Source: Myxococcota bacterium (GTDB taxonomy: Bacteria; Myxococcota_A; UBA9160; UBA6930). Taken from it: a stretch of 64,000 nt of DNA. The DNA lies in contig OZ245015.1 of assembly GCA_965223705.1 (NCBI GenBank), positions 864,001-928,000 of the forward strand. Reading direction: 5' to 3'. The notes under the pieces were generated by a model. The model was not told where the DNA came from and made no database searches. It was given only the letters and a program-made list of their open reading frames with translations. Positions 13,895 through 38,309 of this stretch are shown here, piece by piece (the stretch's first letter is position 1; every line of letters begins with the position of its first letter). The translations under genes were made by a program, and so were the position numbers.

Positions 13895-14713
13895 CTAGTC
13901 GGTGAGCTGTGCGCGCAGCGCATCATCGACGTCCGTGAGCTCGAGCCGGTAGTGGCGCCGAAGGCTCCGCGGAACCTGTCGGCTCCGGAGACAATCCGCG
14001 AGAAACGCGGCGAAGCGACGTTCTCCGAACCGGCGCATCAAGTGGTCCACCGCCGCGTAGGACGTCAAGTAAGCGGCTCCGGCACCACCTGCACCCAGGC
14101 TGGAGAAGGACTGCGCGCCGAGCTGGTGGAGACTCGGGAGCCGCCCCGCTCTTGCGACTCGGGCGAGATAGCTCCACTCGGCGCCCGACAAACCGCGCTT
14201 GCCGAGGGACCGATGAGCGAACCATTCGGCCAGACCCTCGTTCAACCAGCCTGGGACCGAGAAGGAAGCAGGCGCGGCTTGGTCCAATGCAGCGTGGACG
14301 AACTCATGATGGAGCACGTGGAGCAGGGCAGCGTCGATGCGCGTACCGCCCCGGACGCAAATCACCCCCCGAAAAAAACCAGCCGCCTGAAAGCGGAAGA
14401 GGCTCGAGAACTCGGCGTCGAAACGTTGTGGATCGTATACGTACACCGAGATCGGGCGTTGGGGTCGGACGCCAAACCGTGCGCCGAAGGCATCGTAGGC
14501 CGACTCCAGACCGTCGAGCACGCCGAGCTCGAATCGTCGGGTGCCGCGGTGGCCGGAATAGTTGTCGATCGCGACGTCTTGACGCAAGACGAAGTGACGC
14601 GATCTCCGCTCGGAAAACTCCCCGTCGGCGCCTCGGTTGCGAGCTTCCGCGGGGAGCGCCAGAGTGAGAAGCGCGAGCAGGACGGCTAGTCGGGTAGGCG
14701 CACCCCGTCTGAT
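13895..14713 (-). CDS. Secreted zinc metallopeptidase (peptidase MA-like); start probably non-canonical ATC
   Basis: HHEFVH and WLNEGLAE motifs; signal peptide ending PAEA; GGAGGAGG 6 nt upstream of ATC. Confidence 0.75.
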   Translation of the reverse strand: MRRGAPTRLAVLLALLTLALPAEARNRGADGEFSERRSRHFVLRQDVAIDNYSGHRGTRRFELGVLDGLESAYDAFGARFGVRPQRPISVYVYDPQRFDAEFSSLFRFQAAGFFRGVICVRGGTRIDAALLHVLHHEFVHAALDQAAPASFSVPGWLNEGLAEWFAHRSLGKRGLSGAEWSYLARVARAGRLPSLHQLGAQSFSSLGAGGAGAAYLTSYAAVDHLMRRFGERRFAAFLADCLRSRQVPRSLRRHYRLELTDVDDALRAQLTD

Positions 14714-18891: not shown

Positions 18892-18911
18892 GTTGAGTCC
18901 CCTTACTCCAG

Positions 18912-21098: not shown

Positions 21099-21123
21099 GA
21101 ACGAAGTGGCGAGTGGAGCCTGA

Positions 21124-22287: not shown

Positions 22288-22680
22288 CTTGAAGTTACCC
22301 ACGCCTAGGCCTCCCATGATCTGACCTCTTGTCAGAGGAGTCGCTTTCCCAACGCGGCGGACACAGGAGACAACATCGGACGCGCTGTTTTCGCCGCGCG
22401 TGGCAGCGCTCACCGCAGTTCCACAGCAAACGACCGCAGTTCGTAGGACGGGCGCACCGCAAGGAACGGCAATCCGTAGGACGGTGTTCCGCATGCGTCG
22501 ACACCACGTGCGGAGTTGACTCGAGAAATCCCGCATTGCGTCCGGGGCAAACCTTGTCGCAGGCACATATCCCACGGGGTCGAAGACGGAGAACTTCTTC
22601 CGAACAGCTAGGGAAGCCGGAACCGCCCCTCTTCGCATACGCGTGTGCGGAGCGGTGTTCCTATATAGGGAAGGCTTCTC

Positions 22681-24909
22681 ATGCCGAAGCGATGGTTGGC
22701 ATTCTTCCTTCTGATAGGCGCTTTCAGCGTATTGCTAGCGAGCCCCTCACAGAGTGGTGAAACCGCGAGCCTCCACGAGGGAGCGGTTCACGAAGGACAG
22801 CCGACCGTCCGCGCGCAGCTCGTTGTGCATCCCGACGACGATTCCGGCCATCGGATCGGTGTCCTGTTCGACATCGCTCCGGGCTGGCACATTTACTGGA
22901 AGAATCCAGGTGAGTCGGGCCTCGCAACCGAAGTGGATTTCACCGTCGCAGGGGCGACGGTCGCGCCGCTCCTCTGGCCGACCCCGGAGCGGTTCGCAGA
23001 CGCCGGCACGAACTTCGATACGTATGGCTACACGGGGAGCGTGCTGCTCCACAGCGTGGCACTTCCCGAAGATGCGGGCTTCGTCCCGACGACCGTGGCG
23101 GCGGAAGTCGCTCTCGTTTCGTGTAAGGACGCCTGTATTCCCGATCAGTTCACCTTGAGTGGTGACGTCACGACTCTACGGGCAGCGGACCCGGACGCCG
23201 TTCGCGGCGTCTTTGCACGCGCGAGCTCTTCGCTGCCTCTCGCCCCGAAAGTCGCCGGCGTGCGCGTCGAGCCTTGGATGTCCCGCGACGGGGTTCGCCC
23301 GAGCGAACGCGTCGATCTCGGTTGGGCGATCTATCCGATGGACCCGTCGGAGGCTCTCGACGCCCAACTCGACGCGGTCGGATTCTTTCCGGAGAAAGTG
23401 TCGGGGCTAAAGCTCGAAGAGATCCGAGTCGCGCCTCATCCGGCCTCGTCGGGAGCCCTGTGGGTTTCGGCGAAGATGCTGGCCTCCACGAAGCCGCTCA
23501 CCGAGATGCAGCTCCTTCGCGGCGTTCTAAAGCTCGATGAGAAACGCTCTATCGCGGTCGAGTTGCCCGTCTCACGAGTCGGCCCGGAGGTCGCGACGAG
23601 CGCATTGGCGTCGCCCTGGACGACGAGCGCGAATCCCGAAAGCGGCGGTGCGTCGTGGGTGTGGATGCTGCTTTTCGCTTTCGTCGGTGGATTGGTCTTG
23701 AACCTCATGCCCTGCGTCTTGCCCATCCTCGCGCTGAAATCGTTCGCGGTCATGGAGATCGCCCAGGCGCGCCGCGGCGAAGCGTTGCGCCAGGGAGCCG
23801 CCTACACCGCGGGGATCCTCGGCTCCATGTTGCTACTCGCGTTCGCCGTCGTCGCGCTGCGACAAGCGGGGACCGCCGTCGGCTGGGGCTTCCAACTGCA
23901 GGAACCCGTGTTTCTCCTCACCGTGAGCGCGTTGTTGTTGCTCTTCGCCTTGAATCTCTTCGGCGTGTTCGAAGTCGGTTCCCCTTCGGCGCTGGCGAGT
24001 GTCGGTGCCGAAAAGAGCGGGGCGACACGGAGCTTTTTCGAGGGGTTCCTGGCCGTCGCTCTCGCGACGCCCTGTTCGGCCCCGTTCCTCGGGACCGCCG
24101 TCGGCTTCGCGTTCACCACCGGAAACGCGGCGACGATATCTGTGTTCCTGTGCGTCGGTTTGGGACTGGCCGCGCCGTTCATGGCGATTTCCGCGCTGCC
24201 GAACCTGTCCCGCCTGCTCCCGAAGCCCGGCCCATGGATGGTCCACCTTCGGACGTTCCTCGGATTCTGCCTGCTCGGTTCGGTGGTGTGGTTGTTGTGG
24301 GTTCTCGGCCAGGTGACAGCGGTCGATGCAGCACCGCAAGCGCTCGTCTGGTTGCTGCTGTTGTCCGTCTGCGCCTGGTTCTACGGACTCGGTCAAAAGG
24401 CCGATACCGGTCGGATGCGACCCGCCTTGATTGCGTTGGCGATCGGAGCCTTTGTCGCCGGCCCCGGCTTGATTCGCGCAGAACGGAGTGATCCCAGCGA
24501 GGCCAGGGTGCACGCATCCTCCGACGAAGCGCGCGATGTCGCCTACACACCCGAACGGCTAGCGGAGGGGCTCGCATCGGGTCGTCCGGTGTTCGTCTAC
24601 TTTACGGCGGACTGGTGCGTGACGTGCAAGGTGAACGAGCGGCGCGTTCTTTCGACAGATCGGGTGCGCGCCGCCTTCGCAGAAGGTGACTACCGCGTTC
24701 TGCGGGCCGACATGACGCGGCGTGATCCCGAACTGGTCGCGACGCTCGCTCGCTACGGTCGGGCTGGCGTGCCGCTCTATCTCCTGTTCCGGCCCGAAAG
24801 CCGCGATGAGCCGACGATTCTTCCCGAGCTCCTCCGCCAAGACGATGTCTTGGCGGAGTTGCGCGCAACTCGCGTCACAACTGCTTCCGACGTGCCGACC
24901 CGACTCTAG
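22681..24909 (+). CDS. dsbD: DsbD-family thiol:disulfide interchange protein (N-domain, TM domain, thioredoxin)
   Basis: GWHIYWKNPGESG, SCKDAC, LNLMPCVLP, ATPCSAPF, PKPGPWM, FTADWCVTC. Confidence 0.9.
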   Translation: MPKRWLAFFLLIGAFSVLLASPSQSGETASLHEGAVHEGQPTVRAQLVVHPDDDSGHRIGVLFDIAPGWHIYWKNPGESGLATEVDFTVAGATVAPLLWPTPERFADAGTNFDTYGYTGSVLLHSVALPEDAGFVPTTVAAEVALVSCKDACIPDQFTLSGDVTTLRAADPDAVRGVFARASSSLPLAPKVAGVRVEPWMSRDGVRPSERVDLGWAIYPMDPSEALDAQLDAVGFFPEKVSGLKLEEIRVAPHPASSGALWVSAKMLASTKPLTEMQLLRGVLKLDEKRSIAVELPVSRVGPEVATSALASPWTTSANPESGGASWVWMLLFAFVGGLVLNLMPCVLPILALKSFAVMEIAQARRGEALRQGAAYTAGILGSMLLLAFAVVALRQAGTAVGWGFQLQEPVFLLTVSALLLLFALNLFGVFEVGSPSALASVGAEKSGATRSFFEGFLAVALATPCSAPFLGTAVGFAFTTGNAATISVFLCVGLGLAAPFMAISALPNLSRLLPKPGPWMVHLRTFLGFCLLGSVVWLLWVLGQVTAVDAAPQALVWLLLLSVCAWFYGLGQKADTGRMRPALIALAIGAFVAGPGLIRAERSDPSEARVHASSDEARDVAYTPERLAEGLASGRPVFVYFTADWCVTCKVNERRVLSTDRVRAAFAEGDYRVLRADMTRRDPELVATLARYGRAGVPLYLLFRPESRDEPTILPELLRQDDVLAELRATRVTTASDVPTRL

Positions 24910-25013
24910 TTCGGGGGGATTGGCCCGCAACGAGTCGTCGATCCGTGAGCGCGATCACGCGCTCTCCGCGCGCCCGATCGATACATCAAACACCCTGTAG
25001 TTCGGAGCGTTTC

Positions 25014-25616
25014 ATGACACCCGGATCCCGCCGCGCCCTCGTGCGCTCGTTCGTGTTCTGTTCGACGATGGCTTTCTTCCTCTCCGTGAGTGGCGGTTCA
25101 TTCGCCATAGATCGAGGTCGGCCGGCGCCGAAGTTCACCGGCCCGTCACTCGACGGGAGCGGAAAGCTCTCGCTCAAGCAATATCAAGGACGGGTCGTCT
25201 ACGTCGATTTCTGGGCGTCCTGGTGTCCTCCCTGCTTGAAGTCCCTGCCCGTGCTCGATGAATTCCAGAAGGAGTTCGAGGATCAGGGTTTCCAGGTTCT
25301 CGCGATCAACGTCGACAAAGACGTCGAGGCGGCACGCGAGTTCTTCGCGGAACGCGGCGCGAGCTACCCGAGCTTGTCCGACCCCAAAGGTCGGCTGCCG
25401 CGACAGTTCGGCCTCGAGACCATGCCGACGTCGTATCTCATCGATCGAGAAGGACGCGTGCACTGGATTCACGAGGGCTTCAAGAAGAAAGACGTCGAGA
25501 CGATCCGCACCGAGATCAAGGCGCTTCTCAAGAGCTCGGCTCCGCCCGAGACGTCGACCTATCCCGCCAAGCGGTCGCCGAAATCGGCGCGTCAGTTGAA
25601 GCGGGAGCAGCACTAA
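25014..25616 (+). CDS. TlpA/ResA-family periplasmic thioredoxin
   Basis: VDFWASWCPPC, MPTSYLIDREG. Confidence 0.92.
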   Translation: MTPGSRRALVRSFVFCSTMAFFLSVSGGSFAIDRGRPAPKFTGPSLDGSGKLSLKQYQGRVVYVDFWASWCPPCLKSLPVLDEFQKEFEDQGFQVLAINVDKDVEAAREFFAERGASYPSLSDPKGRLPRQFGLETMPTSYLIDREGRVHWIHEGFKKKDVETIRTEIKALLKSSAPPETSTYPAKRSPKSARQLKREQH

Positions 25617-25849
25617 TGAAGCGCTTCGCCGTCATGTCTCTTCTCGCGTGTACGACGTTTGCGCTCGCCGCCTGTCAGGCTCCGAAAATCGGAGGCGTCA
25701 AACCCTGGGAGCGCGACATCCTCGCGAAACCCGATATGGCGTGGGATCCCGATCCCCAAGAAGCCGCTCTCCGGTCCCACATCTTCTTCAGCAAAGAGGC
25801 CGCGACCGGCGGCAGCGGTGCGGGTGGGGGCGGATGCGGCTGTAACTAG
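25616..25849 (+). CDS. Small lipoprotein, DUF4266-like
   Basis: Lipobox LAAC, VKPWER..LA, SKEA, C-terminal GGGCGCN; translationally coupled (TAATG). Confidence 0.85.
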   Translation: MKRFAVMSLLACTTFALAACQAPKIGGVKPWERDILAKPDMAWDPDPQEAALRSHIFFSKEAATGGSGAGGGGCGCN

Positions 25850-25900
25850 TCCGCCGGAAAGCGTCTCGACCCCAAAGCCCTCGCAAGACGGAGCCCCCTC

Positions 25901-27205
25901 ATGAGCCAGGCACGCAGCCTACGTCGATTGGCACTGCGCCGCGATAAGAAACGAAACCGCAAGGGACACTCAGTCCCCAAGCCTCGGAGTTCGGCGCCCG
26001 AAAAGCATCGCCGTTCGTTGGCCGCGCTCACCGCTGGCGCACTCGCACTGCCGGGCCTCGCGGGACCGGCGGGCGCCGACGCACCGTCCGAACGGCCCAG
26101 CGCGAGCTACCGCTTCTCGACGTACCAGGAGGACAAGATCGATTCTTCGAACTTGGCCCCGGGAAGCGAGGACGAGCGCTACGAAATCGATACGCACCAA
26201 TTGCGGTTTTCTTCTCCGCTGAGTTCCAAGATCGATTTCTCACTCGATGTCGTGCACGAAACCATGAGCGGCGCTTCGCCGTGGTTCGTCCAGGAGGGGC
26301 CGAACGGTGAAGCCCTCCAGGTCATGAGCGGTGCGACGATCGACGAAGAGCGAACGGATTTCCTCGGAAAGCTGAACTACTTCCTCGACAACGGTCGCGT
26401 CTCGTTTCTCGGGGGTGTATCCGATGAAAAGGACTACCAATCGCTGAACGGCGGGCTCGAATGGGAACGTCATTTCAACGAAAAGAATACGACGCTGACC
26501 ACCGGTGTCGGTCTTTCGTTCGACGAGATCGAGCCCACGGATGCCGACCTCTTTGCGACGCGCGTTTCCAGCGAGGACAAAGAGAGCTACTCGGCGTTTA
26601 TCACGTTGTCGCAGATCTTGAACCGCCACTCCGCGATTCAGTCGACCCTGTCCTACCAGAACAGCAATGGCTTCTTATCCGACCCGTACAAGCTGATCTC
26701 TGTAGGCGGCGTGAACCTCGCGGATTCGAGGCCCGACGATCGCAACATGCTGGCGTGGTTGACACGCTATCGGCGCCACTTCGAGAAACTCGACGGTTCG
26801 TTCCACGCCGACTATCGGTTCTACATCGACGATTGGGATATCAATTCGCACACCGTCGAGTTGGCCTGGTACCAGAACCTATTTCGAACGATCAAACTCG
26901 TCCCGAACGCGCGCTACTACAGCCAGAGTGAAGCCGACTTCTACGCGCCATTCCTCTCGGTCTTGCCGAGTGACGGCTACGCTTCGAGCGATTATCGGTT
27001 GTCGCCGTACGGCGCGATTTCGTACGGAATCCGCGCCGAAACGACCTTCCGCGGGTTGTTCGGCGGTCGGCAGGATTGGACGGCCATCCTGTCGTTCGAT
27101 CGATACGACGCCGACGCCGACTACTCGATCCAGAGCGTTGGCACGGAAGCGCCGGGACTGGTGCAGTTCAACGTTCTCTCCTTCCGGATCAAGGCCGACT
27201 TCTAG
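25901..27205 (+). CDS. DUF3570-like outer-membrane beta-barrel with two candidate flavinylation motifs
   Basis: MSGAS and MSGAT, GFLSDPY, YRFYIDDW.I.SHT, RYYSQSEADFY, SSDYRLS, C-terminal Phe. Confidence 0.8.
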   Translation: MSQARSLRRLALRRDKKRNRKGHSVPKPRSSAPEKHRRSLAALTAGALALPGLAGPAGADAPSERPSASYRFSTYQEDKIDSSNLAPGSEDERYEIDTHQLRFSSPLSSKIDFSLDVVHETMSGASPWFVQEGPNGEALQVMSGATIDEERTDFLGKLNYFLDNGRVSFLGGVSDEKDYQSLNGGLEWERHFNEKNTTLTTGVGLSFDEIEPTDADLFATRVSSEDKESYSAFITLSQILNRHSAIQSTLSYQNSNGFLSDPYKLISVGGVNLADSRPDDRNMLAWLTRYRRHFEKLDGSFHADYRFYIDDWDINSHTVELAWYQNLFRTIKLVPNARYYSQSEADFYAPFLSVLPSDGYASSDYRLSPYGAISYGIRAETTFRGLFGGRQDWTAILSFDRYDADADYSIQSVGTEAPGLVQFNVLSFRIKADF

Positions 27206-27206
27206 G

Positions 27207-28157
27207 ATGGAGCCGAGGCGGTATCCCTTTAAGGCGATGGGGAGCCCCTGCGAGCTTCACCTCTACGGGAAGACGGCCGCCGATTGCGATGCCGCAGAAG
27301 CGCTCGCCCGGACCGAAATCGATCGGCTCGAGGCGAAATTCTCCCGGTACCGGGGCGACAGTTTGACGGCGAAGATCAACGCGAGTGCCGGCGATCCCTC
27401 GGGAGTCGAAGTCGACGAAGAAACCGCAACGCTCCTCGACTACGCCGACACGGCTTTTCGCGAGAGCGATGGCGCGTTTGATGTCACCTCGGGAATCCTC
27501 CGCCGGGTATGGGACTTCAAGTCCGGCCGCGTACCCAGTCGCCGAGACGTGAAGGCGCTCCTACCCATGGTCGGCTGGCAGCGCGTTCGCTGGGAACGCC
27601 CCAGACTCGTACTCCCGAAGTCCGGCATGCAGGTCGATTTCGGCGGATACGTCAAGGAATACACGGCGGACCGCGTCGCTGCACTGCTGCGAGAGGCCGG
27701 TGTGGAAAGCGGCCTCGTGGACCTGGGCGGCGATCTGGCCGTCGTCGGACCGCACCCGGACGGGTCGGCTTGGCGTGTAGGCATTCGGGATCCGCGTGCG
27801 AGAGGTCGCGCCATCGCACAAGTCGCACTCGCCGGAGGCGGGTTGGCGAGCAGCGGCGACTACGAGCGCTTCATCGAAATCGACGGAACGCGATACGCCC
27901 ACATACTGGATCCGCGGACCGGCTGGCCGGTGACTTCGCTTGCTGCGGTGTCGGTGGTCGCAGATCATTGCCTCGTCGCAGGCACCGCGAGCACGGTGGC
28001 GATGCTGCTGGGAGAGCGGGGCGGATCGCAGTGGCTTGAGGAGCTCGGTCTCCCTCATGTCCGTGTCGATCAACACGGCGAAGTGCGGGGCTCTCTGGCT
28101 CCATCGGCGCGAGCTCTTACGGCGCTGCGTTCGCCGGCACTTCCGGTTTGGCGATAA
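27207..28157 (+). CDS. apbE: FAD:protein FMN transferase ApbE
   Basis: FKAMG, AFDVT, DFGGYVKEY, DLGGD, ASSGDYER, HILDPRTG. Confidence 0.93.
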   Translation: MEPRRYPFKAMGSPCELHLYGKTAADCDAAEALARTEIDRLEAKFSRYRGDSLTAKINASAGDPSGVEVDEETATLLDYADTAFRESDGAFDVTSGILRRVWDFKSGRVPSRRDVKALLPMVGWQRVRWERPRLVLPKSGMQVDFGGYVKEYTADRVAALLREAGVESGLVDLGGDLAVVGPHPDGSAWRVGIRDPRARGRAIAQVALAGGGLASSGDYERFIEIDGTRYAHILDPRTGWPVTSLAAVSVVADHCLVAGTASTVAMLLGERGGSQWLEELGLPHVRVDQHGEVRGSLAPSARALTALRSPALPVWR

Positions 28158-31026
28158 TCCTCGCGACGTAGCCTCCCGAGGACAGCGCGTTCACCGCGCC
28201 CGCCGCGTCGCTGAGAGTCTCGTACGGCGACAAAACCACATCGAAGCGCTTCTCACCTTGCCATTCCCACGGGACGACGACACCGCTTCCGTCGGGGCCG
28301 GATACGGCTTCGGCGACATCGGACGCCTCGTCGCGATCGGTGTAGGTGCCGACCAACACCGCGAAAGGCCGCTCTCGATCGAGGGACAACCCTTCGAGCC
28401 GCGCGAGGTTCCGCTCGAAGCCCGCGCGCTGGCGTGCGGAATCGGCCAGTTGTTCGATATCCCCGCGGAGCGCCCGCGCCCGGACGGCTACGACGAACTG
28501 ATCGTCGACCTCCGTCGAAGTGGTCGAGCGGAACAAGAACCCGAGCAAGGGAATGTTCATCAGGAACGGAACGCCCGAAGCGGTCTCGATTTGTCGTTGG
28601 TCTTTCGCCAGCGCGACGATCGCGTACTCATCGCCGAACAATCGGATCGAGGTCTCGACGGCGCGCTGTGCGAGCGACGGACCGAGGTCTTGGTTGCCAC
28701 CCACGAGGGAGTTGATCACGGACGTCTGCTCGATCAGAAGATCGAGTCGCACCGAACCTTCTTCTCCGGTGTAGGGGGTGACCCGCAAGCGCAGGCCGAC
28801 GTCCTGCCGCTCGATGTCCTGGGTGGTTTGGAGTTGTGCGAGGTTTGCGCTCGCCTCGCTGCGCTCGACGGGTATGGGAACGTTTGCTCCGGCGAACAAC
28901 TCGTGCTCTTCACCCGCGACCATCAGCAGGTTCGGGCGCATGAGGACGCGTCCCCGAAGCTCTTGTTCATCCGCCGTGACGACGAACGATTCCCGCGGAA
29001 CCTGAACCGAAATCGGGACGCCCCCCGCCGTGACGATGGGAACCACTAGAGGTGCGCGCGTGAAGCGCACCGCACCGCGGGGCCCTCCGGGCGTACCGGG
29101 CCGGATGAGGCCGCCTCCAGACGGGTTGAGCAGCAGCGTTCCGAGAACGTCTTGCGCATCGGTCGGCCGCGAGATCGGAGTGAACGCGTCGAATCCGAGG
29201 GAGAGCTCTCCGGAGCTCGTGAGTTCGAACACCAAGACTTCGAGGCGAATGCGCGCCGGCGTGCGATCGAGCTCGGCGACGAGATCCGAGAGAGCGCGGA
29301 ACGTTTCGTCGTCGCTGCGGATGACCAGCGAGCGCGTCGGCGCATCCACCGTGACCTGAAAGTCTTCCCCTCGCAGGGCCGGACCGGCGTTCGCGAGAGC
29401 GCCGTCGCTCCCGCTTCCCGCGGCGATCGCCTCGAGCTCTTTCGCGATCTGTTCCGGATCTGCGGCGCGGAGCCGAAGCACGTGGAGGCTCCCCCCGCCG
29501 CGAACCGGTTGATCCAACCTCCGCAGGAAGTCGCGAACTTCAACGAGGCGCGTCGGGGTGGCGCGGACCAGCAAGGCGTTCGTTCGTTCGTCCGGGAAAA
29601 GTTCGGGCACATCGCGCGTTTCGTCGCGAAAACTTTCGTCGATCAGGTTCGCCGCGTCTGTCGCGTCCCGATGTCGCAGCCGAACGACGGCGAACTCGGT
29701 GCCCGATGACTCGTCGAGCGCCCGAATGATGGTGAGGATGCGGCGGAGCTGCCCCGCGCTCCCCGACAGGATCACGCTGTTGGTCGGGGGATAGGGCAGC
29801 ACGATCAACTGCGCGCCGAGCCAACCGCGAAGGGCGTCGACGACGTGCCTCGGAGAAACCGACCTCAGTTGAACGAGCGTCGTCACCGGCGCATAGCCCG
29901 AAAGGGAGTCCGCTTCTTCCCACGGGCCCGATGTCGTGCCGGCCTGGATCGGCAAGATCTTGTAAGCGCCGCCGGGTGTCAGGAGAGCGGCGTAACCGCG
30001 CATGAGGAGCGCCGCATGGAGCAACTCGAGGGCCTCGGCCCGTGTGATTCGCCCGCCGGCGGATACCGTGACCGCGCCTTGAAGGGAGTCGTAGATGAAG
30101 CGTTCGCCCGTGATCTCGGCGATCGCTTCTACGACCTCGACGAGCTCGGCATCTCGGAATTCGAGGGTGACGCCGGTTTCCGCGAGTCGCTCGCGTGCGA
30201 ACGCAACCGCCAGGATGGCCCCGCGCCGGGTGATCTCGGGCGGTTCCCGACCGGCGCGTTCGATGATGATCCGAACGGTCGGTTCCTCGATGTCGGCGCG
30301 TTCAAATACGCTTATCGAGGCGATTCCGCGCCCGATTTCGGGGGCGATGCGACCGGGGGCGCTCGGGTCGAGCGTCGTCCCCGGGAAATCGATGACGACG
30401 CTCGAAGCGGTTCCATCCTCGACTTCTGCAGTGACGCCGCGCTCAGCGAAGACGAGGATCCGCTCGAGCTCGTCTCCCGTTTCCAACTCGATCCCGTAGA
30501 TGCGTGTCGGTTTCGAGCTCGCGGAGACCGCGGGAAGCGCCGGCCTCGCTGTCTCGGGCGGACCGGCCGAAACCTGGGGAAGGGCGGACGTGGTCTCGAT
30601 TTCCCCCAGCACCACCACCCACCCCTCACCCGTGGGTTCGAGTCGCCAGCGACGAAACGGATCACGGGCGCTGCCCCCATCGACAACCACACGCGTGAAC
30701 TGGGCGTGTCGCCCGACGCGTACCCTTCGGGCCACGCTTCCGTCTCCCGAGACGCGCGTTCGTGTGACGCGGGTCTCGAGCTCGGGGAGATCGATGACGA
30801 GGCGCGTCGGATTCTTCAGCGCGAAGACGCGGGGTCGAGGGGGGAGGCCGTCGGTCTTGAGAATGATCCGCGGCTTGTCCGGAACGGCTCCGTCGATCGC
30901 AACGTCGACGAGCGCCGTGGCCTCGGTCATCACTTGCGCCTCGGCGACCCAAGGAGCCGCGAAGCAAAGCGCACAGGCGATGATCGCCGTCCGGATCAAA
31001 AAAACCCCCGAATGGGTGCATCCCAT
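28117..31026 (-). CDS. GspD-like secretin with N-terminal AMIN domain(s) and C-terminal SPOR-like domain
   Basis: NPTRLVIDLP..VRVG (AMIN); LEFRDAEL (N0); PTNSVIL, DERTNALLV, DAPTRSLVI (N1-N3); ERQDVGLRLRVTP and VPFLMNIPLLGFLFRS (secretin). Confidence 0.85.
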   Translation of the reverse strand: MGCTHSGVFLIRTAIIACALCFAAPWVAEAQVMTEATALVDVAIDGAVPDKPRIILKTDGLPPRPRVFALKNPTRLVIDLPELETRVTRTRVSGDGSVARRVRVGRHAQFTRVVVDGGSARDPFRRWRLEPTGEGWVVVLGEIETTSALPQVSAGPPETARPALPAVSASSKPTRIYGIELETGDELERILVFAERGVTAEVEDGTASSVVIDFPGTTLDPSAPGRIAPEIGRGIASISVFERADIEEPTVRIIIERAGREPPEITRRGAILAVAFARERLAETGVTLEFRDAELVEVVEAIAEITGERFIYDSLQGAVTVSAGGRITRAEALELLHAALLMRGYAALLTPGGAYKILPIQAGTTSGPWEEADSLSGYAPVTTLVQLRSVSPRHVVDALRGWLGAQLIVLPYPPTNSVILSGSAGQLRRILTIIRALDESSGTEFAVVRLRHRDATDAANLIDESFRDETRDVPELFPDERTNALLVRATPTRLVEVRDFLRRLDQPVRGGGSLHVLRLRAADPEQIAKELEAIAAGSGSDGALANAGPALRGEDFQVTVDAPTRSLVIRSDDETFRALSDLVAELDRTPARIRLEVLVFELTSSGELSLGFDAFTPISRPTDAQDVLGTLLLNPSGGGLIRPGTPGGPRGAVRFTRAPLVVPIVTAGGVPISVQVPRESFVVTADEQELRGRVLMRPNLLMVAGEEHELFAGANVPIPVERSEASANLAQLQTTQDIERQDVGLRLRVTPYTGEEGSVRLDLLIEQTSVINSLVGGNQDLGPSLAQRAVETSIRLFGDEYAIVALAKDQRQIETASGVPFLMNIPLLGFLFRSTTSTEVDDQFVVAVRARALRGDIEQLADSARQRAGFERNLARLEGLSLDRERPFAVLVGTYTDRDEASDVAEAVSGPDGSGVVVPWEWQGEKRFDVVLSPYETLSDAAGAVNALSSGGYVARIIAKPEVPANAAP

Positions 31027-31092
31027 TCGGGGGCGAGGTTACCGGGCTCGACTACGAGGGCCCAGTCTCATCCGTCACAAACGCTCGAGCTT

Positions 31093-31860
31093 TCAGTCCT
31101 TGCCGAAACCGGGAAGCGAAAAGGAGAAGAAACGCACTTCCATGCCGGTCGTGATCTCGCTCGAATCGAGCTCGAGCTCATAGGTGCCAAATGAGGTCGG
31201 CCCGTTCAGCAAGTCGACTTCGAGATCGCCGAGATCGACCTTCCGGTAGCCCAGGGACCAAGTGACGTTGCGCGTCAGGTCGTAGCTCAGACCGACGCCC
31301 CAGTGAGTTGCAGATTCCGAGGTGCTGTCGCTTCCGGACGAGATGTTGTCCGTCGTCTGGATGTCGATGTCCGCCCAGCCGATGCCCCCACCACCGTAGA
31401 GACGCAACGGCTCGAGCACCGGGACGCGGCCGAAAATCCACGACACGGGTTCGTGTACGGGCACCTCGAGCCAGACACTCGGCATGATCGTGTCCGCTTC
31501 CACTTCGGTAAAGAAGCCGTCGCCGCCAGCGGTCCGGAACTCGTAGTCGCGGCCCCACGTGCCTTCGAGCTCGAGCCGCACGCGCCAGCTCGGGACCGGG
31601 ACGCGATCGATCTTGGTCAGCGCCTCTTCAAGCGTGAACGCGAGGCCGACCGCGCCGCCGTACGCGGGAGATTGGTCGTCGTCATCTCCGGTGAGCGGGA
31701 AAAACGTGGTCTGCCCCGAGGACGAGCCTTCGCCGTCCGAGACAAAGACGTTGCCTTTGCCGTACAGGTCCACCGAATAGGTCGGGCTCGATGCGAAGAC
31801 CAGCAGGCCGAACATCAAGACGACGGGAACAAGCGGCAAGTTCAAATGGGGGCGCGCCAT
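31093..31860 (-). CDS. Small outer-membrane beta-barrel protein (OmpA-TM/opacity-like)
   Basis: Signal peptide; RLELEG, LYGGGGIG, WGVGLSYD...LGYR..DLG amphipathic strands. Confidence 0.75.
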   Translation of the reverse strand: MARPHLNLPLVPVVLMFGLLVFASSPTYSVDLYGKGNVFVSDGEGSSSGQTTFFPLTGDDDDQSPAYGGAVGLAFTLEEALTKIDRVPVPSWRVRLELEGTWGRDYEFRTAGGDGFFTEVEADTIMPSVWLEVPVHEPVSWIFGRVPVLEPLRLYGGGGIGWADIDIQTTDNISSGSDSTSESATHWGVGLSYDLTRNVTWSLGYRKVDLGDLEVDLLNGPTSFGTYELELDSSEITTGMEVRFFSFSLPGFGKD

Positions 31861-32002
31861 GGCTTCTCCTCAAACGGCCGATCGGGACCGGCAACGGTTC
31901 GGCAGCTCGGGACTCCCGACAGGAGGTCGCGCGCTGCATAGAGCACATCGTTCTGTGACTTCGAACCCCGTGTGACGAAACTCACGCGCCGAATCGTGAC
32001 CG

Positions 32003-32491
32003 ATGCCGCTCCAACGCTGGATGTCGGATCACAACCATGCCCCCGCCTGGCTGTTCGCGTTTGTCGACCTGGCCTTTCTGCTCATCATCGCCATGACGCA
32101 AGTCGGTGTGGACGACGCGGCTCCGGACTTCGGCGAGATCTCCGTGCCGAAGATTCGGACGGATTCTGCCGATGCGTTGCCGGCCCGTTTTCACAACCGC
32201 TGGCAATTGCGCGTGCACCCGCCCGCTGCCTTCCGCTCGAAACCGTTCGAACTTTCGCGCAACGACGACGCAAGCGTCGGCCCCAAACCATCGGATCGGC
32301 TGGAGCTCGGCGAGCTCGAACGTCGCCTGACAGCGATGAAAGCGTCCGGTGAGGGGCGCCCCCTCCTGGCGCCGCACGAGGATTCGCTCAGCCAAGACCT
32401 ACTCGCTGCCGCTAACGCCATCGAGAGCACGTGGCCGCGTCGGCGGCGAGTCGCCGTCATTCCTCTGGCGGCCGAGGTGGCGAAGCGATGA
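32003..32491 (+). CDS. ExbD/TolR (MotB-like TM) single-pass membrane protein
   Basis: N-terminal WLFAFVDLAFLLII with the conserved Asp, then a small periplasmic domain (LLAPHEDSLSQDL). Confidence 0.65.
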   Translation: MPLQRWMSDHNHAPAWLFAFVDLAFLLIIAMTQVGVDDAAPDFGEISVPKIRTDSADALPARFHNRWQLRVHPPAAFRSKPFELSRNDDASVGPKPSDRLELGELERRLTAMKASGEGRPLLAPHEDSLSQDLLAAANAIESTWPRRRRVAVIPLAAEVAKR

Positions 32492-32528
32492 ACGAATCCC
32501 ATCCCGTGGGCGTTTCGGGCGACTCGCA

Positions 32529-33917
32529 ATGAGCCGACCTCACTGGCTCGTATCCCGCCGCTACGGTTACGGGTCCTACGAAGTTCGGGTCGCACCGCGA
32601 CTCGCGCGACGTGCGCCGAAACTTCCGCATCTCGGCCCCGGGGCCCCGATCGGAGCTCTGACGAGCCTCGCTCTTTTTGCCGCCGGGCTGTTCTCGATCG
32701 TGCCCCGGGACACGGACGAGAGCGATGTCGAGATCGTGTGGTTGTCCGAGGATCCGCAACTCGAGCTTCCGCCGGTTCCGGAACCGGTTTTCGAGGCCGA
32801 CCCCCCCGAAGAAATCGCGGAGGAGGCGCCTTCGCCGGAAGAGGTGCCGGTCGAAGTTGCCGCCGTTGTGCCGCCGCCCGAAGAGAAACTGCCGGAGCCT
32901 CCGGTGGTTGCGGAAGTGGCGCAGAAGCCAACGTCCCAACCGAAACCGAAACCCGTGACGAAGCCGCAACCGACGCGACGCGTGAGCCCGCCGCCGAAGC
33001 GAACCCACATCGCCGCAAAGCCCAAACCCGCCGTACGTCCGAAGGTTCGGCGCGCCGCGCCGAAGCCCCCCGTGCGGATCGCGAAGAAAGCGCCGACCCG
33101 ACCGCCCGGTGATCTCGGCGCGATTCCGACGCCTCTGGTGGATGAACGCCTAGCGACGGAAACCGTAGGCACCGCCCGAGCCGGTCGGTCGACCCGCCCG
33201 CCGGCGAAAGAGAACCCCTTTGCCGGTCCGGCGACCCCGATGCCGGACCTGTCGGCGCCGACCTTCGATGCCCCCGACGCGGGTAACGCCTCGACGAAAC
33301 TGGCGAGCACACGCCAAGCGCGTGCGTCGGCGAAGAAGGCGCGCCGGCCGAGTGCACGCGAGCGAAGTGCGGCCCAAGCCGCGCTTGCGGTTCCGGCGGC
33401 ACCCCTTCGCGAGGAATCCGCGGCGCCCGAGGAACCCGTCCGCGTGGCGAGATCGAATCGCGCGAGCGCGCCGCGTGCAGAAAACCCTTCCCGCGCACGC
33501 AGCGCGAATCCGATTGAGCTCGAGGTCCCCGAGGCTCGCGAACCCGTACTCCGCGAAACTGCCGCCGCAGCGGCTCCGACGAAGTCGGTGCGCACGAAGG
33601 CGCCGCGGCCGTCGGCTCGAAGTTCTCGGACAACGCGTCCTGTGGCGCGCCGCACGCGTAGCGACCTCGTCGGCGTACCCCTCGCTTCGCTCGCCACGTG
33701 CCACTCGGATCGGGAAGAAGATCGCCTGAAGCTTGCCGTCATCGCCGCGAGCGCGGGTCGCACGTCCTGTGAAAACGACGCGGGCGTCTTTCATCTGGTC
33801 GAAGCCAAAAACCTGAACGCGTTCTTGCTCTCGATTGAGGGCGCGCGCGACCGAAAGCTCGACGATCGCTGCACGGAGCTCGTGAACGTGATCCAGTGCC
33901 TTCAGGAAGACCGCTAA
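32529..33917 (+). CDS. TonB/TolA-like protein: TM anchor, long Pro/Glu/Lys/Ala-rich linker, small Cys-containing C-terminal domain
   Basis: TM LTSLALFAAGLFSIV; PEP/PKP-rich linker; C-terminal ~90 aa with four Cys. Confidence 0.65.
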   Translation: MSRPHWLVSRRYGYGSYEVRVAPRLARRAPKLPHLGPGAPIGALTSLALFAAGLFSIVPRDTDESDVEIVWLSEDPQLELPPVPEPVFEADPPEEIAEEAPSPEEVPVEVAAVVPPPEEKLPEPPVVAEVAQKPTSQPKPKPVTKPQPTRRVSPPPKRTHIAAKPKPAVRPKVRRAAPKPPVRIAKKAPTRPPGDLGAIPTPLVDERLATETVGTARAGRSTRPPAKENPFAGPATPMPDLSAPTFDAPDAGNASTKLASTRQARASAKKARRPSARERSAAQAALAVPAAPLREESAAPEEPVRVARSNRASAPRAENPSRARSANPIELEVPEAREPVLRETAAAAAPTKSVRTKAPRPSARSSRTTRPVARRTRSDLVGVPLASLATCHSDREEDRLKLAVIAASAGRTSCENDAGVFHLVEAKNLNAFLLSIEGARDRKLDDRCTELVNVIQCLQEDR

Positions 33918-33926
33918 GGAGAGTCT

Positions 33927-35960
33927 ATGTCTACGAGAATCGCCGCTCTCGTCGCCATGATGACCGTCGCCCTCGTCGGAACGGAAGCGTTCGCGAAGAG
34001 TCAGAAAGACTGGCGAGGTTACCTCGACTACGCCTACGTCTACTCATCGGCGGACGCCGCAGGGCTCGCAAAGCGAATCGAGACGTACGGCACCACGACG
34101 GGGCAGGATCTCGAGAGCTATGTCAGCCGGAAATGGAAGCCCAAGAAAGAGAGCGACGTCCAGGCGATTGAAGCCACGTATCGTCGGAAGGCGATCGGAC
34201 ATCTGCTCCTCTATCTGGCTTACGACGACGGAAGGCACCTGGGACTCGCCGTCGATACGATCCAGAAGCTGCGCAACCGACTCGGCCGCTACGAAAATCG
34301 CTACTGGTTTCACTACATCCGAGCGCATCAGCATCTCGAGCGTCGCCATCACCACGATTTTACCGGTGAGGTGCTCGATCTCTGGTTCAACGTGATCGTG
34401 CCCCTGGAGACTCCGTACGAGACGCTCCAAACGCTCTCGCTCGACGATTCGCCGAACTCCGGTTTCGCCGCGGCCCTGCCCTATCTCTATGAGAACGTGT
34501 CGCGGATGGTTCTCCTTCGAGCTCGTGAGAAGGGGATCGACGACGGACTCGATCCGCTGGGCGCGATCCTGCGCTTGCTCGGCGACGGTCGGATTGGCGC
34601 TTACCCCGAAGTCATTCCCATCAAAGCTTCCTCGCGGGCGTACCTCGATCGCATTCTCACCCGTCTGGAAGGACCCGAGTCGGACGCCGGAAGCTTGACG
34701 TTCACGTACGCCTTGATGAAAGCGGGCCGCATTCACGAACGCGCGCGCCGCAACATCGCTGAACGCGGACTCAGCGAAGAGACCATCGCGTCGATCGCGG
34801 AAGCGAGTCGCGCCTACCAACTGACGTACGAGCGCGCCGATACCGAGCAGGGCCGTTGCGCGGTCTACACCCGCGCACTCCGCCAGATCGGCGAGGTCTA
34901 CGCCGCCAAGCAACGACTCGGTGTCGATCCGCAGATCGATATTCCATTCGATCTCGACGGCGCGATTGAAACCTACGAGAACTTGCACAACACCAAGGCC
35001 AAGCGTTGGGCCGTTCTCGGCTATGCGCGAAACGGACGCGAAGCCTACTACAACGCGATGCGCGGCCTGTGGGAAGAGATCCAGGAAGCGACGCTCAACG
35101 TCGCCGATTACCACCTGACCCAGGCGGAAGCCGATGACTACTACGCCGAGGATCACGCGCGCGACGCTTTAGCGCTCTACAACCGCTATCTCGGATTCTT
35201 CAACGCCTACGCCGACGGGACAGACGGCAAAGGTGTTCCCGACTCGGCGTACTTCGCGGCGCACGAGGCGGCGAAGGGTATAGGCGACGGTTTCCTCGTC
35301 TACGCCCCGTACCCGACCACCGAAGAAATCGACCTCGCGATCCGCCGCTACCAGAGCGCACTACGCATTTTTCCGTTCGATCGGAACGTATGGTCAGCTC
35401 TCGCGACCGCATTGGAGCGACAGGGGCGAGAAGGGGAGTTCGCCGACCTGGCCCGGCCGGCGGCGGACGCGGTGATTCGCTCATCCGTCGTCGAAACCTG
35501 GGTTTCGCAGCGGCGCCCTGAAGCGGCGCGCATCGAAAAACTGCGGCGCTCCTTGGGCGATAGCCAAGCGCTGATGTATCTGGGATTTGCCGAGGCCGAC
35601 GACGTCGGCAATCTCGAAGGTCGGCTCGAAGAGCTGAAACGGCAGCACAAGGAAGTGACCACCTCGCTGCGACGTCTCAAAGCGCAGAAGAAGCGCAGCG
35701 CTTCCGTGCCGGCGTCCCAGGGCGCCGACGTGGATTCGCTCCTGTCGTCTCTCGAGAACGACGCTATCGATCGCGAGATCGCCGGGCTTGAAGCTGCGGC
35801 CGAGCGGCTTTCCAAGCGGATCAACGCGCGTTCTCGCACCTTGCCGAAGTATCGCGCTGCACTGGACAGTGACGGGATGTCCAACGATCTCCGTTCAAGG
35901 CGAGATCACCCCGTGCATTCGCTACTCCGTCACATGTATCACGAACACGACGGTGAGTAG
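33927..35960 (+). CDS. Large secreted alpha-helical (TPR-like) protein with C-terminal coiled coil
   Basis: AAGGAG SD, signal peptide ending AFA, Tyr-rich helices (AIRRYQSALRIFPFDRNVWSALA), heptad-rich C-terminus. Confidence 0.8.
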   Translation: MSTRIAALVAMMTVALVGTEAFAKSQKDWRGYLDYAYVYSSADAAGLAKRIETYGTTTGQDLESYVSRKWKPKKESDVQAIEATYRRKAIGHLLLYLAYDDGRHLGLAVDTIQKLRNRLGRYENRYWFHYIRAHQHLERRHHHDFTGEVLDLWFNVIVPLETPYETLQTLSLDDSPNSGFAAALPYLYENVSRMVLLRAREKGIDDGLDPLGAILRLLGDGRIGAYPEVIPIKASSRAYLDRILTRLEGPESDAGSLTFTYALMKAGRIHERARRNIAERGLSEETIASIAEASRAYQLTYERADTEQGRCAVYTRALRQIGEVYAAKQRLGVDPQIDIPFDLDGAIETYENLHNTKAKRWAVLGYARNGREAYYNAMRGLWEEIQEATLNVADYHLTQAEADDYYAEDHARDALALYNRYLGFFNAYADGTDGKGVPDSAYFAAHEAAKGIGDGFLVYAPYPTTEEIDLAIRRYQSALRIFPFDRNVWSALATALERQGREGEFADLARPAADAVIRSSVVETWVSQRRPEAARIEKLRRSLGDSQALMYLGFAEADDVGNLEGRLEELKRQHKEVTTSLRRLKAQKKRSASVPASQGADVDSLLSSLENDAIDREIAGLEAAAERLSKRINARSRTLPKYRAALDSDGMSNDLRSRRDHPVHSLLRHMYHEHDGE

Positions 35961-35970
35961 GAGTCGCCCG

Positions 35971-36516
35971 ATGTTTGCAAGAGGCCAGAAGATCGTGATG
36001 AGCGGGGTGCTCGCCGTCGCGTTGTCCGCGTGCGGCGGTCCGAACTACCGCGTGCCCGAAGATTTCGCCGCTGCTCCCGAAGCTGCCGAAGAAGAAGAGC
36101 TGCCGCTTCGGGGAGACGAACTCGCCCAGCGAAAACTCTCGCTCGCGCGGGCCTACAGCGACATGGAGCACTTCCACGACACGCTGGTGAGCCTTCGCTA
36201 TCGAAAGAACCGGAACGGCACGATCCTGTTCGTGAGCTTCCTCGAATCGTACATGGCGACGTTCCTGGATCCGCTCCTCGCGAATCGGTGGCAGGCGAGC
36301 CACCCGGATATGCAGCGCCTCGATGCGAACGTGCGCTTTGCACAGACCGAACTCCTGCGTCAGATGCGCGACGGTCGTCGCGTGCGCCGCAACATCAAAG
36401 ACATCAAGCGACTGTACAAAGACAGCGACGGGTTAGTGATCGACTACCCCTACGGAGAAAAAACACCCCTGGGCGAGAGCCTCGTCATTTTGCGCAAGGG
36501 CAAGGCCCGTAGCTAA
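35971..36516 (+). CDS. Hypothetical lipoprotein
   Basis: AGGAG SD, lipobox LSAC, in operon. Confidence 0.75.
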   Translation: MFARGQKIVMSGVLAVALSACGGPNYRVPEDFAAAPEAAEEEELPLRGDELAQRKLSLARAYSDMEHFHDTLVSLRYRKNRNGTILFVSFLESYMATFLDPLLANRWQASHPDMQRLDANVRFAQTELLRQMRDGRRVRRNIKDIKRLYKDSDGLVIDYPYGEKTPLGESLVILRKGKARS

Positions 36517-36525
36517 GGAGCCATC

Positions 36526-37092
36526 ATGTTCGGAGAAACCTCGGTTACGTTGACAGTCACGGTGATCGCGCTCGCTGCGGTCTGGATTCCCTTCTATCGC
36601 GGTCTCAAGCTCTGCCGTGCCGCGAGCGTCGCAACGCGAAAGCTGCGGCGCGAGGAAATCGACGCCCATCTGCGTCAGGGTGGCGGAACGTCGGAACCGA
36701 TCTCCGTCCAGCTTCTTCAGCTGATCCGCAAAGCCTTGCACGAAAACCGAGAAGGTCAGCCGGCGGATTTCATCGTCGACGCGAGCCGTCAATACGTGAC
36801 GAGTGAGTGGGACGCCCTCTATGCGAAGCCGATCTCGATGTACGCGAACGTGCTTCCGCCGATTGGCTTCATCGGAACCACAGGCGGCTTGCTCGTGCTG
36901 TTTCTCTCGATGCGCGTCGCGAACGACACGCTGGAGCTCGGCGCTTTGGCCGTCGCGTTGATGTCGAGCCTATTCGCGTTGGTCGGCTTTACGGTTCTCG
37001 AAGGCCTCAAGATCCGGCTGTACGGCCGGATGGTCTCGGGAATCGACGAAGCGATCGCCTACTATCGGGTGCGCACGGCGGGCCGTTCCTAG
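36526..37092 (+). CDS. MotA/TolQ/ExbB proton-channel family protein
   Basis: Three TM segments; ANVLPPIGFIGTTGGL and ALAVALMSSLFAL match the family TM2/TM3 pattern. Confidence 0.85.
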   Translation: MFGETSVTLTVTVIALAAVWIPFYRGLKLCRAASVATRKLRREEIDAHLRQGGGTSEPISVQLLQLIRKALHENREGQPADFIVDASRQYVTSEWDALYAKPISMYANVLPPIGFIGTTGGLLVLFLSMRVANDTLELGALAVALMSSLFALVGFTVLEGLKIRLYGRMVSGIDEAIAYYRVRTAGRS

Positions 37093-37318: not shown

Positions 37319-38050
37319 TTAGACGTCGAGGCCGCGAAGTCGTTCCATCGCGTAGATCAAGAGTTCGGCCTCGATCTCCGCGGAGGTTCCTTCGAAGACC
37401 ACGCCCATTCCCACGGGAAGATTCCGGCGTAGGAAGGTGCCCGGCACATTGGTCATCGTGACCCGGGCTTTGAGCTTGATTTCTCGGCTGCCCACACGCA
37501 CCGGCACGACGACCTGAGCGTTGCGCGGTGAGGGGTTCGGAAGCTGCAAGAACGCGCCTCCCGGAGAGATCGTGTAGATCTGCGCCTTCTTCTTGCGGCG
37601 CCCTTGCGCCACTTCGCCGCGCCAATTGGCCGGAGCGCGGAGCGCGCCCCGGGTGCGTCGGGGGGGCTCGCCCTGCGCCAACGCGCGATTGATCTGGAAG
37701 CGCAGCGTCGATTCGTCGAGAGGCGTCCAGAGCGCGAGCTCTACGCCAGACGTGCGCAGGCGGGTGTTTTCCTCCGCGATGTCGACTTCCGGACGCCGGC
37801 CGGTCACGAGGACCGGAACCGGATGCTCGCCTTTGATCGAGAGGACCGCATTGCGCAGGTTCAACGTGGGTAGGTCCGGGGGGATAATGAGTGCGCCCAC
37901 TTTCGGGCCGGCCATCATCATGATGCGGCGGGCCTCGTCAGGCGTTTTCGCGCCGAGGACCCGGTATCCCAGTCGCCGAAGCCAGGCGACGATCTCGCGC
38001 ATCGGGCTGCCGTTGACTCCTACGGCGACAATGTCTCTGTTTGCACTCAT
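37319..38050 (-). CDS. Degenerate receiver domain + PilZ domain protein
   Basis: REC-like N-terminus; RGALR...TISPGGAFL...GMGVVF PilZ pattern. Confidence 0.7.
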   Translation of the reverse strand: MSANRDIVAVGVNGSPMREIVAWLRRLGYRVLGAKTPDEARRIMMMAGPKVGALIIPPDLPTLNLRNAVLSIKGEHPVPVLVTGRRPEVDIAEENTRLRTSGVELALWTPLDESTLRFQINRALAQGEPPRRTRGALRAPANWRGEVAQGRRKKKAQIYTISPGGAFLQLPNPSPRNAQVVVPVRVGSREIKLKARVTMTNVPGTFLRRNLPVGMGVVFEGTSAEIEAELLIYAMERLRGLDV

Positions 38051-38309
38051 GCTGCCCTCCACTCCTCACTCGGTTGTGTGGGGCTTATCGTGCGGGTCTT
38101 TTGGGGGATGCGTGATCGACGTCACGCCAGCGACGGGGCCACGATACGCAACGATCTCCTCCAAGGGGCCGATCTTTCTCGAGATTTCGATTCGCGACCG
38201 CGATCACCAAAATTTTGTGACGAGTTCGTTCATACGACCCGAGCCCCTTCGGGACGCGTCCGTGAAACGCGACGTTCAGTCGGCGGTATGATGCGCGCGG
38301 AGGCCTTGC

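Follow-up and report, generated by a model that had tools for sequence, protein, structure and literature searches.

A distinct lineage of predicted proton-driven envelope motor, encoded beside an outer-membrane redox block in a Myxococcota bacterium

A conserved five-gene operon

The stretch of DNA analysed here (the window) comprises 64,000 nucleotides of contig OZ245015.1 (positions 864,001 to 928,000 of the forward strand) in assembly GCA_965223705.1 of a Myxococcota bacterium. The system in question is a five-gene operon within this stretch (the module), which encodes an ExbD-like protein, a proline-rich TonB-like protein, a large helical protein, a lipoprotein and an ExbB-like protein. 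A first-pass annotation, made by a model from the letters of the window, had placed two divergent genes beside these five, and all seven open reading frames were present and arranged as it had described. Proteins are referred to below by the first coordinate of their genes.

28117-31026, minus strand: divergent secretin, a second GspD-like protein with domains AMIN-N0-N-secretin-SPOR; a neighbour of the gene block described below
31093-31860, minus strand: small outer-membrane (OM) beta-barrel (PF13505); an accessory part of that block
32003-32491, plus strand: ExbD/TolR/MotB-like stator B subunit with one transmembrane (TM) segment and an invariant Asp (D22)
32529-33917, plus strand: proline-rich protein, a TonB/TolA-like force transducer by architecture (TM segment at residues 40-58, linker, C-domain)
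33927-35960, plus strand: 677-aa secreted all-helical TPR-like solenoid with a C-terminal coiled-coil hairpin; predicted periplasmic scaffold
35971-36516, plus strand: lipoprotein (Cys21) of no known family; likely OM anchor
36526-37092, plus strand: stator A subunit of the ExbB/TolQ/MotA superfamily with three TM segments, in a clade of its own

The five genes are separated by gaps of 37, 9, 10 and 9 bp, GGAG ribosome-binding sites precede the last three, and the likely start of the ExbD-like gene is the ATG at 32021. In a Pfam search of the window proteins, 36526 matched MotA_ExbB at an E value of 1e-3, under the cut-off, and neither 32003 nor 32529 gave a match. The host genome is 95% complete and carries the operon in a single copy. 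Canonical TolQRAB-Pal, several ExbBD sets, MotAB with flagellar genes, a type II secretion system (T2SS) with its own GspD, PilQ and Tad genes were all identified by us, from translated neighbours, elsewhere in the genome. These sets map outside the window, in agreement with the earlier description of the window as free of tolB, pal, flagellar genes and other T2SS or type IV pilus genes.

Searches with the 677-aa protein detected 527 homologues. We took 67 genome loci with such a homologue, mostly from metagenome-assembled genomes (MAGs) of Myxococcota or Deltaproteobacteria, and compared their gene order with that of the window. The order ExbD-like, helical protein, lipoprotein, ExbB-like was observed in 39 of the 68 loci (window included), and tblastn located the proline-rich gene between the ExbD-like and helical genes in the MAG loci. 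Seventeen loci lacked the 5' part alone, mostly at contig edges, seven had the helical protein and lipoprotein with neither stator gene beside them, and five had other partial patterns. Use of 33927 as a bait, a synteny check put forward in the first-pass annotation, thus recovered the five-gene order in Myxococcota MAG loci, and this conservation indicated that the operon is more than a chance arrangement. A receiver-like and PilZ (TIGR02266) protein encoded at 37319-38062 is convergent on the operon; it stood beside the operon in none of the 67 loci.

Profile searches extended the helical family to distant members with 16-25% identity. The clusters of these members bear NCBI names in Thermodesulfobacteriota/Desulfobacterales, and a further branch was found in Geobacteraceae and cultured Geomonas species, WP_162604616.1 being one of the Geomonas homologues. 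The distant branch was sampled as 35 metagenome loci and is known in Geomonas from the helical protein. Profiles of the four other genes detected clear homologues in these 35 loci (best E values of 1e-27, 2e-32, 2e-18 and 1e-13); the set of five is thus kept together across two phyla. The order in 22 of the 35 loci (one with a split helical gene) was lipoprotein, ExbB-like, ExbD-like, transducer, helical protein; the remaining 13 were partial. As exbB and exbD are adjacent in these 22 loci, with the A subunit first, the odd order of the window is a circular permutation of the distant one. The ExbD-first, ExbB-last order highlighted by the first-pass annotation is therefore real and conserved in the Myxococcota loci, and is a permutation of an arrangement in which the two stator genes adjoin.

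Distribution was scored in 141 genomes of the class, which we take to be GTDB UBA9160, with presence of the helical protein defining 62 module-positive and 79 module-negative genomes. In a further sample, the ExbB-like family was present in 14 of 38 genomes within the class and in 0 of 163 outside it. Many genomes of one genus (g36) carry a second, diverged copy of the operon (e.g. L149:8266-13356 and L150:3-4978).

The stator pair and its partner proteins

Hydropathy analysis indicated three TM segments in 36526, one in 32003 and one in 32529 (residues 40-58; 14% Pro). All 40 aligned members of the ExbB-like family match PF01618, and the family profile matched TolQ in the PDB at an E value of 0.005. 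A tree of the TM core was built from 63 rows and 96 columns (16 of the 40 close members, 12 distant members and 35 references, the AglR-like labels among which were assigned by us from neighbouring genes). The 28 new proteins came together in a single long-branched group (100/96), distinct from the TolQ, ExbB, AglR-like and MotA groups; its sister group was not resolved in this tree. The comparison with ExbB, TolQ, MotA and AglR-like proteins, which the first-pass annotation had named as a check, thus placed 36526 in a clade of its own and not with canonical ExbB/TolQ.

The residues at the predicted pore were also conserved. Positions matching P141, G144 and T148 of Escherichia coli ExbB were kept in 28 of 28 proteins, and the position matching T181 was Thr in 15 and Ser in 13. 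According to the available part of a study of Ton and Tol structures, these threonines ring the pore beside the essential Asp (bioRxiv 10.1101/2024.10.08.617233). The TM segment of the ExbD-like family has the motif W-L-F-x-F-x-D-L-x-x-L, in which W, F, F, D, L and L were invariant in 54 of 54 homologues; 6 of 31 members matched PF02472 (best E value of 1.4e-3). The ExbD-like assignment is based on the Asp-bearing single TM segment, on the adjacency in distant loci, where exbD-like directly follows exbB-like, and on joint loss with the ExbB-like gene. The ExbB-like gene was detected in 59 and the ExbD-like gene in 58 of the 62 module-positive genomes compared with 1 of 79 module-negative genomes each, the two module-negative exceptions being a truncated exbB remnant (G275) and a contig end (G042). 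Both genes were missing from three of the module-positive genomes (G264, G266 and G291). Five additional genomes with stator-less loci were searched, and in four of them the assembly (completeness not given) contained neither stator gene. Overall, these analyses indicated that the five genes very probably include a working stator together with its transducer.

In four loci (L058, L063, L066 and L070), the transducer, helical protein and lipoprotein were kept and both stator genes were lost, with the barrel gene co-directional and directly upstream in three of them; the transducer in such loci may borrow another motor. A further divergent MotA/ExbB-like gene (229 aa) was observed about 1-3 kb beyond the end of the window (G000 C1:929067-930929, locus L007). 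After it come genes for a 205-aa partner, whose one TM segment bears an Asp, and for a membrane protein of 189 aa; the MotA/ExbB-like protein formed a long branch in the tree.

The three partner proteins matched no characterized family. In 32529, the proline-rich linker was predicted to be disordered and was followed by a C-domain of about 80 aa at residues 381-461, modelled with a predicted local distance difference test (pLDDT) value of >90, which has four conserved cysteines. Profile comparison of this head gave no alignment to the E. coli TonB or TolA C-domains or to the genome's own paralogues, and NCBIfam gave no match, GltG and TonB-C being the families in question, for the window transducer or for one distant member. 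A fold search with the whole 462-aa model had as its best hit an unrelated chain (VIA Z 4.1, root mean square deviation of 3.0 over 60 residues), and no TonB or TolA chain, nor any clear fold match, was present among the 50 matches listed. The AlphaFold2 model of the 677-aa protein (pLDDT of 92) was an all-helical solenoid with a coiled-coil hairpin, for which fold searches returned generic TPR or coiled-coil matches and the ESM Atlas returned generic TPR clusters. The Cys of the lipoprotein is nearly invariant, and the residue at +2 is Ala in 31 of 60 and never Asp; the lipoprotein matched no known family and nothing in the ESM Atlas at >=0.9.

The module resembles the Ton (ExbB5-ExbD2-TonB) and Tol (TolQ5-TolR2-TolA) systems in having a three-TM A subunit with Pro/Gly/Thr in TM2 and Thr/Ser in TM3, a single-TM B subunit with an Asp and a single-TM, proline-rich transducer with a globular C-domain. 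It differs from them in that the A subunit lies in a separate, long-branch clade and does not keep the TM3 proline, in that the transducer lacks the SHLS motif (1 of 53) and has a four-cysteine C-domain with no detected likeness to TonB-C or TolA-III, and in that it has a dedicated helical protein and lipoprotein and no adjoining receptor, TolB or Pal. No TonB-dependent receptor was present among 40 large neighbours, which represent, with one member for each cluster, the 48 nearby proteins of >560 aa that fall outside known clusters; tolB and pal were not among the recurrent neighbours, and the real tol-pal locus is elsewhere in the genome. As in MotAB, the B-subunit TM segment contains W-x-x-x-F-x-D-L, and the TM3 motif of the distant members resembles that of MotA. 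In contrast, the A subunit of MotAB has four TM segments rather than three, the 160-aa B subunit of the module has no OmpA-like domain, and comparison of the ExbD-like family with MotB gave no match beyond an hhalign probability of 2%.

Transducers with a vWA domain, encoded beside tolQR-like genes, likewise have a TM segment, a proline-rich linker and a non-TonB C-domain with TPR and motor genes nearby. As described in the part of that survey available, they combine the vWA fold with the SHLS His, whereas the module has the 80-aa four-cysteine domain, no His and another stator clade (PMC12204202). Two recent surveys cover these vWA transducers as well as a 'generic ion transporter' clade that is itself diverse, and the available portions of their texts contain no mention of 'Desulfo' and nothing like a four-cysteine transducer (PMC12204202, PMC12505986). 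The literature searched gave no account of this motor family, the one related item being DUF3570 with ApbE in one paper. The suggestion in the first-pass annotation of an undescribed stator-driven system was supported by the tree and by the lack of TonB-dependent receptors among the large neighbours, and the operon is a real, conserved and previously undescribed variant of the Ton/Tol/Agl kind.

The redox block, the barrel and the secretin

The operon was found to be one part of a larger block that begins at 17386 and that the first-pass annotation had overlooked. Clustering of the proteins encoded near the module detected two recurrent sets that are also in the window, a DsbD-TlpA-DUF4266-DUF3570-ApbE set (22681-28157) and a trio of exported proteins (17386-22317; the haem/Tat trio).

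17386-18891, minus strand: twin-arginine exported protein (c6); Tat motif in 19 of 23 homologues
18912-21098, minus strand: lipoprotein-like protein with CxxCH and LamG (c7; PF13385); CxxCH in 20 of 23
21124-22317, minus strand: exported protein (c8) bearing a single CxxCH, present in 20 of 21 homologues; start inferred
22681-24909, plus strand: DsbD (PF02683, PF11412)
24945-25616, plus strand: TlpA-like thioredoxin (PF08534/PF00578)
25616-25849, plus strand: small CxC protein DUF4266, read from the DNA; a homologue matches PF14086
25901-27205, plus strand: DUF3570 flavinylation substrate (PF12094)
27207-28157, plus strand: ApbE flavin transferase (PF02424)

The set at 22681-28157 is the 'DsbD system' of Meheust et al. 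2021, given there as of uncertain function (PMC8238504), with all of its defining parts: DsbD, a thioredoxin-like protein, DUF4266, a DUF3570 protein with [ST]GA[ST] and ApbE. The available part of the main text of that study has no mention of MotA or ExbB beside such clusters. The [ST]GA[ST] motif was present in 12 of 13 DUF3570 homologues. The c6 family has 7784 homologues, one of which is named 'general secretion pathway protein GspF' by NCBI, yet is a Tat-signal protein without a GspF domain.

DUF3570 was detected in 58 of 62 module-positive and 2 of 79 module-negative genomes, and c6 in 58 of 62 and 9 of 79, counts that overstate independence because the genomes of the class are kin. Where DUF3570 and the helical gene were found on a shared contig (36 pairs), 20 kb or less separated them in 35 pairs, and the haem/Tat trio was directly upstream of the module and co-directional with it in 22 of 67 loci. 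In two module-negative genomes, G014 and G006 (L159:821-5935 and L163:268-5718), the CxxCH/LamG protein reaches an extended length of 1700-1800 aa, with repeat domains seen in G014, and the trio adjoins multihaem-type genes with the motor absent. No Agl-Glt core was found within about 20 kb of the trio in G014, G006 or a third such genome, G036. An S8 peptidase with PPC and BACON domains is encoded directly downstream of the trio in the window (14686-17379); it was not a recurrent neighbour in the examined loci.

The barrel was detected in 44 of 62 module-positive and 2 of 79 module-negative genomes (both weak matches), so that its linkage, contrary to one outcome that the first-pass annotation had allowed for, is not unique to the window genome. 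In 4 of 67 loci it closely precedes the module and is transcribed in the same direction, and in four distant loci a small barrel follows the helical gene directly (E values of 5e-6 to 1e-4 against the barrel profile). In genome G146 of genus g36, barrel, secretin, redox genes, trio and module lie between a CDP-alcohol transferase-like gene and lysS. In G301 and G275 that slot holds the secretin alone, apart from the exbB remnant in G275; the whole block, barrel included, is deleted as a unit in these two genomes. The barrel is thus kept or lost along with the block, on which the secretin does not depend.

Pfam assigned AMIN, GspD-N0, Secretin_N, Secretin and SPOR domains to the secretin, which scored 260 on the GspD model TIGR02517 (cut-off of 351) and did not group with the GspD of the same genome in a quick tree. 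A canonical GspD was found elsewhere in five of five genomes tested. Secretin matches (E < 1e-60) were present in 47 of 62 module-positive and 21 of 79 module-negative genomes, stand-alone secretins mixed with module-linked ones in the quick tree, and the DNA fetched around the 35 distant loci contained no secretin. A second, canonical-type GspD replaces the divergent secretin directly upstream of exbD in G237 (L151:11696-14140); the secretin slot has thus been refilled by a secretin, and this copy fits a second T2SS gate serving the exported proteins of the block. GspD N0 is the usual T2SS docking domain, and the T2SS exports surface cytochromes in Shewanella. Most simply, the orphan secretin would be a second T2SS-type gate, which could export the surface proteins of the block and is not driven by the motor. 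The genome's canonical GspD (G000 C1:2721660-2724200) also ends in a SPOR-like tail, as the orphan secretin does.

A candidate motor and its possible load

The Agl-Glt core comprises AglRQS with GltC, D, E and G, and the available part of Luciano et al. 2011 gives its function in non-gliders as unknown (PMC3169522). As described there, Agl-Glt likewise combines a stator, a transducer, a secreted TPR protein, a lipoprotein and a small barrel, and the sizes of the module parts resemble those of GltC (673 aa), GltK (170) and GltA (256). It differs in having two B subunits and several TPR proteins, compared with one of each in the module, and the module A subunit falls outside the AglR-like clade as labelled by us. 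The 677-aa protein was rejected as a GltC homologue: 0 of 23 members matched the GltC model, and hhalign against 12 GltC-like proteins gave a probability of 0.2%, similar to a reversed control. The GltC model matched in 99 of 99 genomes sampled outside the class and in 1 of 22 inside it (E value of 6e-4, marginal). The Agl/Glt-like transport envisaged in the first-pass annotation thus holds only as an architectural analogy, comparisons with GltC, TonB-C and TolA-C having given no detectable homology.

We propose that a distinct lineage of proton-driven envelope motor is specified by the five genes and likely powers the neighbouring OM haem/flavin/thiol block, a reading that we hold tentatively and at somewhat less than an even chance. 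From the genes, their conservation, key residues, clade and co-occurrence, we infer an assembly, proton flow, contacts and load as follows. By analogy with Ton, Tol and Mot, five copies of 36526 would ring two 32003 helices, with protons passing at the invariant Asp. The membrane-anchored, proline-rich 32529 would carry force across the periplasm, its four-cysteine head pulling on the helical scaffold of 677 aa. That scaffold would in turn be fixed to the OM by the lipoprotein, together with the small barrel in genomes that have one. The likely load in this class would be the DUF3570 protein with its haem partners, for example through opening DUF3570 or installing the partners for reductive uptake; the choice of the redox block as load is equally provisional. 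The module would then take the place that the Agl-Glt core presumably has next to such redox genes in other phyla and, if that link between the Glt core and redox genes holds, would be a non-homologous stand-in for the core. In a fuller version, which is rather doubtful, a separate 5:2 motor lineage, complete with a non-TonB transducer, a scaffold and a lipoprotein of its own, independently assumed the function of the Agl-Glt core next to the DUF3570/haem block.

Several observations weigh against this proposal. The equivalent of ExbB P190 is not kept in the ExbB-like family, the ExbD-like profile showed a weak likeness to that of ExbD (hhalign probability of 6%) and found no match in the PDB, and the SHLS His is lacking from the transducers, Ser-x3-His being present in 1 of 53 TM segments. 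At least seven genomes without a detected stator pair still keep the block, the haem/Tat trio is present without the module in 9 of 79 genomes, and four genomes (G151, G206, G247 and G257) have the module and no DUF3570 match. The module copy in G257 stands without the block nearby, as do the two second copies examined in genus g36. DUF3570, ApbE, DsbD and haem/Tat genes were absent from the DNA fetched around the 35 distant loci, and hence a redox load is not universal. Furthermore, the genomes that show the co-occurrence are related, and it could stem from the inheritance of a single chromosomal block. No evident link of DUF3570-like matches to GltC was detected in other Myxococcota. An Agl-Glt core presumably lies beside DUF3570/haem genes in Gammaproteobacteria and other groups; a search of plasmids and viral contigs for the gammaproteobacterial context of the redox block gave nothing useful.

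The module might instead be a general envelope-remodelling device like Tol-Pal or Nfs, tethering or reshaping the OM or the wall through a pull on the lipoprotein and scaffold of the operon itself, with the redox genes as no more than long-standing neighbours. We consider this unlikely, even though the five genes alone are the unit common to both phyla and stand-alone second copies of the operon exist. A Prc-like protease is encoded directly upstream in 8 of 35 distant loci, and two distant helical proteins have C-terminal extensions, one with an AMIN domain (P0189), which would suit such a device; on the other side, the genome has a complete Tol-Pal, the module is absent from 79 of 141 class genomes and its loss coincides with that of DUF3570. 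If the module served surface motility or surface transport in place of Agl-Glt in the class, this would account for the shared kinds of parts and for the mutual exclusion of module and GltC at class level. Such a role is improbable given the lack of detectable GltC homology, the single B subunit where Agl-Glt has two, the absence of adhesins among recurrent neighbours and the flagellar and type IV pilus genes of the genome; in the portion of Luciano et al. 2011 available, the core alone is judged unlikely to drive motility (PMC3169522).

Gating or powering of the orphan secretin by the motor, which the first-pass annotation had offered as an alternative use of the proton-motive force, is still less probable. 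The secretin is often within about 15 kb of the module in the genomes that have both, and its slot in G237 was refilled by another secretin, but its presence in genomes without the module, the mixing of stand-alone and linked copies, its absence from the distant loci and its retained GspD N0 domain all point elsewhere, and its retention after block deletion in G301 and G275 makes such gating unlikely. It is very improbable that the module is a divergent Ton system energising TonB-dependent receptors encoded elsewhere: the three-part architecture is TonB-like, and the cross-talk between Ton and Tol motors reported in the available part of one study (bioRxiv 2024.10.08.617233) could explain stator loss, yet the C-domain showed no alignment or listed fold match to TonB or TolA, no receptor was among the large neighbours, and the genome has canonical ExbBD sets. 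There is a very slight chance of a Zorya-like phage-defence sensor, to which the patchy distribution and a match of one distant ExbB-like protein to ZorA2 (E value of 5e-5 over the TM core) would point; that match covers the shared MotA/ExbB core alone, there is no ZorA tail and no PADLOC match for the other genes, and the module has a fixed position in a chromosomal block.

Proton motors of the 5:2 type are known to power nutrient import, OM tethering, flagella, gliding and phage defence. The module adds a deep branch that escapes standard annotation, spans two phyla and has three partner proteins of no known family, including a transducer that lacks the canonical motor-binding motif. Uncultured Myxococcota relatives without the usual gliding-motor genes keep the five-gene set, which is also present in sulfate- or metal-reducing bacteria, and the occurrence of the helical protein in cultured Geomonas means that the module can be tested. 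If the module did replace the Agl-Glt core in driving the redox block, this OM redox system would need mechanical force, two unrelated transducer sets would have converged on it, and the role of the Glt core in non-gliders would be to power a redox-coupled OM transporter or assembler. The redox link, if it holds, would thus give a handle both on the function of the DUF3570 flavoprotein and on the role of the Agl-Glt core in bacteria that do not glide.

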